DNA of 64,000 nucleotides, taken from assembly GCA_964438735.1 (NCBI GenBank), contig CAYTLW010000004.1:51953-115952 (forward strand), given 5' to 3'. Under the pieces are notes generated by a model. That model worked only from the letters and a program-made list of their open reading frames with translations. It was not told the origin of the DNA and made no database searches. Source of the DNA: an uncultured Enterobacteriaceae bacterium (lineage in GTDB: Bacteria; Myxococcota_A; UBA9042). The translations under genes and the position numbers were made by a program. This document shows, in pieces, positions 48,649-49,329 of this stretch. Within the stretch, counting starts at the first letter, position 1. Every line of letters starts with the position of its first letter.

Positions 48649-49329
48649 ATGCCGGCTACCCTCGGCCGGCACCTGCAGGGCGCCTGCCAGCTTCTGCTGT
48701 CCGAGTTGTGCGCAATGCAAGACAATCGACCATCGCCACACAACCTGCAGGTCGCGCAGGATCGCCTGGCGCAGCGGCGCGAGCATTCGGGTCTGTGGGC
48801 GCAAGTGCCAGACAGACTCCTCGAGCGCATGATACGGGCGCAGACGGTCCAGTTGATCGCGGCGTCGGTGTTCACATCGGTGCTGCTCGCCGGCGCTCTG
48901 AGCTACTTGTTCGAGTTCCTGGTCTGGGGCGAGGCTCGACACGAAGTGACCGCCCTCGTCTGCGCTGTCGCGCTCTTCGTCTCGGGCTTCGTCGCGTCCT
49001 TGATTATCATCTTCATCCAGAAGATGCGGCGCGATGAACGATCAGCGAAGGAAGCGGAGATGCGCCTGAACGACGAGCTGCGGCAAGCGCTCGCGACGAT
49101 TCGCACGCTTCGCGGCATCATCCCAATCTGCGCCTGGTGCAAGTCGGTGCGCGATGACGAAGGGTATTGGAAGCGCGTCGATACCTATATCTCCGAAAAC
49201 TCGGCGGCGAGCTTCAGTCACGGGATGTGTCCGTGCTGCGAGGAGAAGATGGCGGCCGGTGTCGACGCGATTGCAGCGTCGCCGCCGAGCGAAGACAGCC
49301 CCCTGGGCCGACGGGTCGGCAACGAATAG
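48649..49329 (+). CDS. Small membrane protein with C-terminal Cys-rich zinc-ribbon-like module (putative signalling/sensor protein)
   Basis: SD GGAGG 5 nt before the ATG at 48649. Two TM helices, a coiled-coil (KMRRDERSAKEAEMRLNDELRQALATIRTL), then GIIPICAWCKSVRDDEGYWKRVDTYISENSAASFSHGMCPCCEEK. Confidence 0.65.
   Translation: MPATLGRHLQGACQLLLSELCAMQDNRPSPHNLQVAQDRLAQRREHSGLWAQVPDRLLERMIRAQTVQLIAASVFTSVLLAGALSYLFEFLVWGEARHEVTALVCAVALFVSGFVASLIIIFIQKMRRDERSAKEAEMRLNDELRQALATIRTLRGIIPICAWCKSVRDDEGYWKRVDTYISENSAASFSHGMCPCCEEKMAAGVDAIAASPPSEDSPLGRRVGNE

Follow-up and report, generated by a model that had tools for sequence, protein, structure and literature searches.

The closest described counterpart of the domain reported here is HalOD2, a haloarchaeal response-regulator output in which two CXXC motifs, placed 20-25 residues apart and predicted to form a Zn finger, come behind an N-terminal helical part (PMC5847659). 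HalOD2 was found in a few halobacteria, and its function there is unknown (Galperin et al. 2018, PMC5847659). Here we describe a gene at positions 48649-49329 (+) of a 64,000-nucleotide stretch of contig CAYTLW010000004.1 (assembly GCA_964438735.1), hereafter the window, from an uncultured bacterium of the lineage Myxococcota_A. Its product of 226 amino acids (P0001) carries, at residues 158-204 (49120-49260), a module of about 45 residues with the motif C-x2-C-x29-C-P-x-C, hereafter the Cys4 module. We interpret P0001 as a signalling protein of the inner membrane whose two termini are cytoplasmic, whose sole recognisable functional part is this putative metal-binding output module and in which a dimer clasp would switch a shared target. 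We put the probability of this reading at roughly 55%. The module resembles HalOD2 in being linked to REC domains and in consisting of a helix followed by two CXXC motifs, but differs from it in a spacing fixed at 29 residues and in a distribution over many phyla. The haloarchaeal family PF24439 (DUF7558), which may correspond to HalOD2, did not match the window gene, exceeded its cut-off only in Haloferax volcanii among 14 control genomes, and reached 2 of 145 module-family members below threshold. An identity with HalOD2 was rejected on the basis of the spacing and of the missing match on the window gene.

Other systems share single features with this locus. The hybrid two-component systems of Bacteroides are membrane-bound and hold a whole pathway in one polypeptide, with an AraC-type helix-turn-helix (HTH) domain in the slot behind REC. 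Three members of the module family (P0328, P0330, and P0331) have the layout Reg_prop-Y_Y_Y-HisKA-HATPase-REC-module and match this domain chain through REC, but they end in the Cys4 module where the Bacteroides systems have HTH_AraC, and P0001 itself lacks sensor, kinase and receiver. Likewise, ANTAR and other outputs coupled through a coiled coil are small domains set on REC, PAS or GAF by a dimeric helix, and the signal probably travels by helix rearrangement in them as in the module family. ANTAR is, however, all-helical, RNA-binding and metal-free, and no sequence or fold relation between it and the module was found. Intramembrane-sensing histidine kinases share with P0001 a transmembrane (TM) hairpin with a very short outside loop (10 residues in P0001) and a cytoplasmic helix behind it, but in P0001 the transmitter (HisKA/HATPase_c) is replaced by the Cys4 module.

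The size of the family was assessed by a phmmer search with a 69-residue query covering the module (P0002, window 49054-49260) against 1.84 billion representative proteins. This search retrieved 20,982 representative clusters (defined at 50% identity) at E ≤ 1e-3 and 14,766 at E ≤ 1e-10, with a best E-value of 1.3e-37, and the family hidden Markov model (HMM) matched the module position in the window at 2.9e-32. The module was present in Thermodesulfobacteriota, Nitrospirota, Myxococcota, Verrucomicrobiota, Bacteroidota, Acidobacteriota, Gemmatimonadota, Spirochaetota, Chloroflexota, Planctomycetota, Nitrospinota, and several candidate phyla, a range that includes and exceeds the delta-proteobacteria and spirochaetes in which a preliminary description of the sequence had placed it. 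Within the window's own phylum it was detected in 46 of 201 sampled genomes at 1-8 copies each; the DNA derives from marine metagenomes, and relatives of the neighbouring genes carry Myxococcales names. The genome that encodes P0001 holds one other module protein, a PAS-module protein of 277 amino acids on contig C86. At the lower end of the size range, stand-alone helix-plus-module proteins of 75-95 amino acids form clusters of 78-109 members.

Conservation within the module is strict. Residues C161, C164, C194 and C197 of P0001 (codons 49129-31, 49138-40, 49228-30 and 49237-39, respectively) are invariant in 86 aligned relatives (alignment A1). In the numbering of this alignment the invariant positions are C26, C29, G37, W39, C59 and C62, and L19, G21, P24, K30, R33, D35, E43, Y45 and H56 are conserved at ≥90%. 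The corresponding conserved non-ligand residues of P0001 are P159, K165, R168, D170, G172, W174, D178, Y180, H191 and G192, of which D178 stands at a position occupied by E in 92% of the family and by D in 7%. The spacing between the two knuckles was exactly 29 residues in all 291 extracted instances. The fifth Cys of P0001, C196 in its CPCC sequence, falls at a variable position, so the number of conserved Cys is four and not five. The module always lies C-terminal to a heptad-patterned helix. Family-wide, this linker helix is hydrophobic at alignment positions 5, 9, 12/13, 16, 19 and 22/23, a 4-3-4-3-4 spacing as expected of a parallel coiled coil.

Searches for a known family or fold yielded no characterised domain. 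No family for the module was found in Pfam-A or NCBIfam with either the whole of P0001 or its C-terminal 79 residues; the TM part alone produced matches, and these were at chance level. The ESM Atlas clusters that hold the module are listed with the Pfam family 'none common'. Among PDB sequences nothing scored below E=0.05 against the family profile. The N-terminus of a 'membrane protein' (7yjw_A, residues 17-41) came closest at E=0.056, aligning over the first knuckle and the hairpin without the Trp or the second knuckle, a likeness that is probably due to chance. Foldseek searches with the AlphaFold2 (AF2) model of the module against PDB and AlphaFold Database (AFDB) Swiss-Prot returned no significant match, and VIA-align gave no Z ≥ 2 against 48,161 chains. 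The AFDB clusters and the ESM Atlas yielded only further family members. Among 145 module-family representatives, sub-threshold zinc-finger matches were weak (zf-C4pol in 4, Zn_ribbon_HMPTM in 2). These results agree with the earlier statement that no function had been assigned. Of the two observations that the preliminary description said would refute it, a match to a characterised domain with known partners and Cys that vary among orthologues, neither was made.

The AF2 model of the module has a mean predicted local distance difference test score (pLDDT) of 83.5 and runs from a helix through the CxxC knuckle, a short hairpin around a D-D-x-G turn, helix 42-49 and a loop to the CPxC knuckle, with C59-x2-C62 at the start of helix 60-68. 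As modelled, this order of elements looks closer to a treble clef than to a classical zinc ribbon, in which both knuckles lie on beta-hairpins that build a three-stranded sheet. The preliminary description had proposed four to five Cys arranged like a zinc ribbon. The four stand as invariant residues, whereas the fifth is variable, and the predicted topology may be that of a treble clef, for which the fold searches gave no significant neighbour outside the family. Two further identities were rejected. Zinc-binding anti-sigma (ZAS) factors have an N-terminal H-x3-C-x2-C motif, whereas P0001 has H191-x2-C194-x2-C197 at its C-terminal side and no zf-HC2 match. A sensor histidine kinase was rejected because P0001 has no HisKA, no HATPase_c and no His in its linker helix; HisKA and HATPase_c are also absent from most members of the family.

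The domains that accompany the module place it on the output side of signalling. A Pfam tally over the 145 representatives gave PAS (49), MASE6 (21), REC (15), HAMP (7) and PilZ (4) as partners, along with GAF, PocR, CHASE, CHASE3 and sCache. No kinase, cyclase, GGDEF or HTH family was among the 25 most frequent partners in this set, and the partner families outside those 25 occur in one member each. The ESM Atlas and AFDB added CHASE3, HisKA_7TM, DUF4118, 4HB_MCP and solute-binding sensors, and many of their module entries are auto-named 'histidine kinase'. Beside the module, the ten longest genomic members contain only Reg_prop/Y_Y_Y, tetratricopeptide repeats (TPR), GAF-PAS or dCache-PAS. 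At many of 80 genomic loci, module genes encoding 200-226 amino acids, the size of a REC-module regulator, lie directly behind a large kinase gene and often overlap it. Specifically, proteins of the histidine kinase/REC type were the sole recurring neighbour family (29 of the 80 loci), every other neighbour cluster occurring at ≤4 loci, and three small relatives likewise had no recurrent neighbour besides two-component proteins. The partner tallies, the kinase-adjacent REC-module genes and the HisKA-HATPase-REC-module proteins, taken together, lead us to conclude that the module is the output (effector) domain of one-component sensors and response regulators. The Pfam tallies also uphold the earlier remark that sensor-type proteins end in it where others have a kinase or GGDEF output. 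In tens of thousands of bacterial sensors it stands where the kinase, cyclase or DNA-binding part would otherwise be.

Several variants of this architecture were observed. The module is internal in P0163, P0206, P0246, P0251 and P0196, which have the layouts PAS-(PAS)-module-PilZ and REC-module-REC. Fusion with PilZ is a hint of some connection with cyclic di-GMP signalling. Around 39 of the 150 top matches contain two modules, arranged as [MASE6-module]x2 or REC-module-module (e.g., P0119, P0124, P0137, P0152, and P0149), and these proteins look like natural covalent pseudo-dimers. At L057:5560-6264, on a Marinacidobacterales chromosome (OZ253507.1), a REC-module gene has one in-frame stop in its linker helix; possible causes are a nonsense mutation, an erroneous assembly and a split of the gene. 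Since it is a single frame with an in-frame stop, it was rejected as a natural REC/module split and is not used as evidence.

P0001 is a genuine gene and a minimal-architecture member of this huge output-domain family, which has no curated model. The open reading frame (ORF) translates as first reported, a Shine-Dalgarno-like GGAGG (48639-48643, +) lies 5 nucleotides before the ATG at 48649, and a 99%-identical fragment, P0003, is present in metagenome data. The GC content by codon position is 0.64/0.46/0.80, i.e., GC3>GC1>GC2 as in the neighbouring genes (GC3 0.82-0.90), so the frame is correct and a foreign origin is not obvious; overall GC dips at the gene to about 0.60-0.65 versus 0.68 for the window. 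The short cytoplasmic N-terminus, TM hairpin and coiled-coil segment given in the preliminary description, with the module as the only other domain, all stood up to closer analysis. The N-terminal region (residues 1-65; 48649-48843, +) is followed by the TM hairpin (48844-49011, +), in which hydropathy windows place TM1 near residues 66-87 and TM2 near residues 98-121, on either side of a 10-residue outside loop. Since the N-terminal 65 residues and the stretch behind TM2 are rich in Arg and Lys and the loop is acidic, both ends are placed in the cytoplasm.

The full-length AF2 model of P0001 (17-row alignment, mean pLDDT 74) predicts helices at residues 4-24 and 30-49, both of modest pLDDT and within the N-terminal region, and at 55-91 and 97-157. 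TM2 and the linker (residues 122-157; 49012-49119, +) thus form one helix, 97-157, that leads straight into the Cys4 module, whose own limits rest on the alignment, position frequencies, AF2 and the family HMM. The last three heptads of the linker show an a/d pattern (L140, L144, A147, I151, L154, and I158) with the 4-3-4-3-4 spacing of the family. Behind the module, an Ala/Pro/Ser-rich tail (residues 205-226; 49261-49326, +) is not conserved in the family alignments and has low pLDDT over most of its length (10-residue block means of 83, 70 and 53 from residue 201). No full-length orthologue was found among 40 relatives, whose matches span only P0001 residues from about 91 onward, bar one weak match of 30% identity, and no homologue of residues 1-65 was found. 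The minimal layout of two TM segments plus module is common to several other small family members.

A physical model of the module was obtained from an ESMFold2 homodimer run with 2 Zn. The homodimer scored 0.44, compared with 0.00 for the best of 3 controls, and in calibration 20 of 30 proteins with structures solved as same-chain pairs attained this mark, against 1 of 23 whose structures are single chains; these counts apply only roughly because the run included our own alignment and zinc. Three runs agreed in ≥84% of contacts, with a partner pLDDT ≥75, and the contacts of lowest error were those between C59/C62 in one chain and C26/C29 in its partner. On this model, the four Cys would bind one metal ion per module, most likely Zn and possibly Fe, and two modules would intertwine as a dimer, each metal site taking its CxxC from one chain and its CPxC from the second. 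As modelled, such a dimer resembles the Rad50 zinc hook and other inter-chain Cys4 clasps in drawing two Cys per chain to each metal site, but each chain is predicted to contribute to two sites as a swapped pair, and there is no homology. The two-module proteins of the [MASE6-module]x2 and REC-module-module types fit a paired functional unit.

We infer from these elements the following mechanism. Motion of a PAS, REC, HAMP or TM part would travel down the paired linker helices and alter the geometry or exposure of the conserved polar and aromatic surface (K, R, D, W, E, Y and H) on the clasped dimer. The altered surface would then switch the binding of a target encoded elsewhere, probably a conserved cellular component common to all paralogues and phyla. 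This last step follows from a surface that is about 90% conserved over phyla and over paralogues with differing sensors and from the fact that no target gene is linked. As P0001 has no sensor domain, it may sense inside the membrane or via a partner, as intramembrane-sensing kinases do, or it may hold the module at the membrane; we speculate that it could also pair with the soluble PAS-module paralogue on contig C86. In its general form, the module would be a Zn-finger-type signalling output whose described analogues are the predicted archaeal ones. A broader proposal, which we hold only tentatively, is that it represents an unrecognised major class of bacterial output, with a role on a par with that of HTH, GGDEF or CheY-type outputs. 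It would be a metal-clasped dimeric finger through which many sensors of a cell act on a single conserved target, be it a core machine or a messenger of small-molecule type.

Several observations weigh against the clasped-dimer output. The homodimer score is barely above its mark. The monomer AF2 model folds the module alone, so prediction cannot separate inter-chain from intra-chain metal sites. The modelled interface excludes the N-terminal helix, and the coiled-coil pairing is consequently drawn solely from heptad conservation. Metal, dimer and partner are all predictions, and no conserved neighbour at the 80 loci points to a target. PilZ or REC follows the module in some members, i.e., it is not always terminal. 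Finally, no description of the module was found in the literature searched, where archaeal HalOD2 was the single analogy to emerge, although a paper outside that literature is possible.

The same evidence could be read differently, and the most probable alternative is that the module is a nucleic-acid-binding zinc finger, its proteins being one- or two-component regulators of transcription or RNA in which the finger does the job of HTH or ANTAR. The module does fill the slot behind HisKA-HATPase-REC in P0328, P0330 and P0331, and its conserved K30, K31, R33, W39 and Y45 are residue types of nucleic-acid-binding fingers. The low-probability Foldseek rows were fingers of the GATA, RING, PHD and LIM types. 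The REC-linked archaeal HalOD2 finger has likewise been guessed to bind DNA or RNA (PMC5847659). Yet the module core is acidic on average (net charge averaging -1.4 over n=291 and spanning -6 to +4), no DNA- or RNA-binding finger was matched significantly by sequence or fold, and no target genes recur beside the family at the 80 loci. Surface conservation of about 90% over phyla and paralogues would also be unusual for sequence-specific DNA readers. We consider a nucleic-acid-binding role unlikely.

On the other hand, the Cys4 site could itself be the sensor, a redox, oxidant or metal switch that adds an input, through Zn release as in Hsp33 or RsrA or through a rubredoxin-like Fe centre. The rubredoxin of Clostridium pasteurianum has its ligands at Cys6, 9, 39 and 42, a spacing identical to C-x2-C-x29-C-P-x-C in a protein of similar size, and the CPxC knuckle is typical for rubredoxins and thiol oxidoreductases. 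The family also reaches its highest frequency in lineages rich in anaerobes, Thermodesulfobacteriota and Nitrospirota among them. The agreement ends with the Cys spacing, and rubredoxin (PF00301) was rejected: no rubredoxin or thioredoxin-fold match appeared in Pfam at E ≤ 10, among PDB sequences or in the Foldseek and VIA-align searches, and helices 42-49 and 60-68 of the module model are absent from rubredoxin. A purely sensory site would, moreover, leave REC-module and HK-REC-module proteins (i.e., those with a histidine kinase before REC) with no output and the conserved non-Cys surface residues unexplained. Such a switch seems to us somewhat less probable still than a nucleic-acid-binding finger.

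The module might instead be a structural dimerisation cap, with the output coming from the domain upstream (e.g., a CheY-like REC surface) and P0001 a decaying or orphan remnant. The predicted homodimer interface does sit in the module, single-domain REC proteins can signal alone, and P0001 has no full-length orthologue among the 40 relatives. A cap, however, does not need an invariant Gly and Trp or the K, R, D, E, Y and H conserved at about 90%, and it would not account for the clusters of stand-alone helix-plus-module proteins. The intact frame, ribosome-binding site (RBS) and native-like GC3 of P0001 argue against decay, and we regard this possibility as improbable. Weakest of all is the proposal that the divergent radical SAM enzyme (46937-48406) modifies or partners the Cys-rich C-terminus in the style of a ribosomally synthesised peptide precursor and its maturase. 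In its favour are the adjacency of the two genes across a 242-bp intergenic region and the peptide- and protein-modifying types such as HxsC4 among the enzyme's best, far sub-threshold NCBIfam matches. This link, suggested by the preliminary description, found no comparative support and was rejected as very improbable, since only histidine kinase/REC genes recur at the 80 family loci, neither a P0001 homologue nor conserved synteny appeared beside the enzyme's orthologues from 6 related genomes in flanks of about 1.5 kb (five of them) and 5-7 kb (three), and the module is a folded, cytoplasmic, family-wide domain unlike a leader-core peptide.

The gene is bracketed by 33-bp repeats, as had been noted from the sequence. 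A tandem array of 3.8 copies (48459-48592, +; Tandem Repeats Finder score 217, 94% matches) occupies the divergent intergenic region upstream, and a remnant downstream (49325-49371, +) consists of the unit-boundary motif AATAGCGAGTTG, which overlaps the stop codon, followed by a partial and a full 33-bp copy (49331-49371), so that 1.4 copies stand behind the stop. As AA(C/T)(G/A)GCGAGTTG, the unit-boundary motif is seen again shortly upstream of the RBS (48610-48621) and over the stop codon. In the 8.1-Mb assembly the 33-bp unit is confined to this locus. The array is a point at which metagenome contigs break, and a contig of the 33-nucleotide unit has about 3x depth; none of the metagenome contigs joins across P0001, and no form without the gene was seen among them. 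Another metagenome contig of similar depth carries a related repeat unit. Scans of 48300-49500 for promoter and terminator consensus sequences and against Rfam returned no match. A regulator array, a recombination scar and a cassette boundary are candidates for the nature of these repeats.

Upstream, the radical SAM gene (46937-48406, -) encodes 489 amino acids and belongs to an uncharacterised radical SAM subfamily. Its protein matched NCBIfam HxsC4, TrsS, Tes and MoaA far below threshold and has relatives of 48-77% identity in Myxococcales-type metagenome-assembled genomes, where they are often auto-named MoaA. Two bPH_2 (bacterial PH domain) ORFs (45607-46119 and 45950-46888, +), which overlap by about 170 nucleotides as listed, the second probably starting later, sit between this gene and a hybrid histidine kinase carrying Hpt (42636-44684, -). 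Downstream of P0001, two ORFs (51381-52691 and 52857-54854, +) encode large Cys-rich, Asp-rich proteins predicted to be secreted, the first of them without a Pfam match, and further on a 117-bp coding tandem repeat is present in 5 copies (55609-56190). These ORFs and the repeat look like myxobacterial-style repetitive surface proteins.

Censuses of signal transduction sort proteins by output domain, and those with this module at their end currently go by the labels 'PAS domain S-box protein', 'response regulator', 'histidine kinase' or 'hypothetical', so that their pathways have no recorded endpoint. With the module, its metal and its target defined, much of the signalling in environmental bacteria would gain an output, including complete kinase-receiver-module pathways. 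P0001, a TM hairpin plus module, is about the smallest natural context of the module and hence a convenient construct for biochemistry. If many sensors do converge on one target through this finger, its near-identical surface over >15 phyla would mark a regulatory hub that is absent from the classical model organisms.

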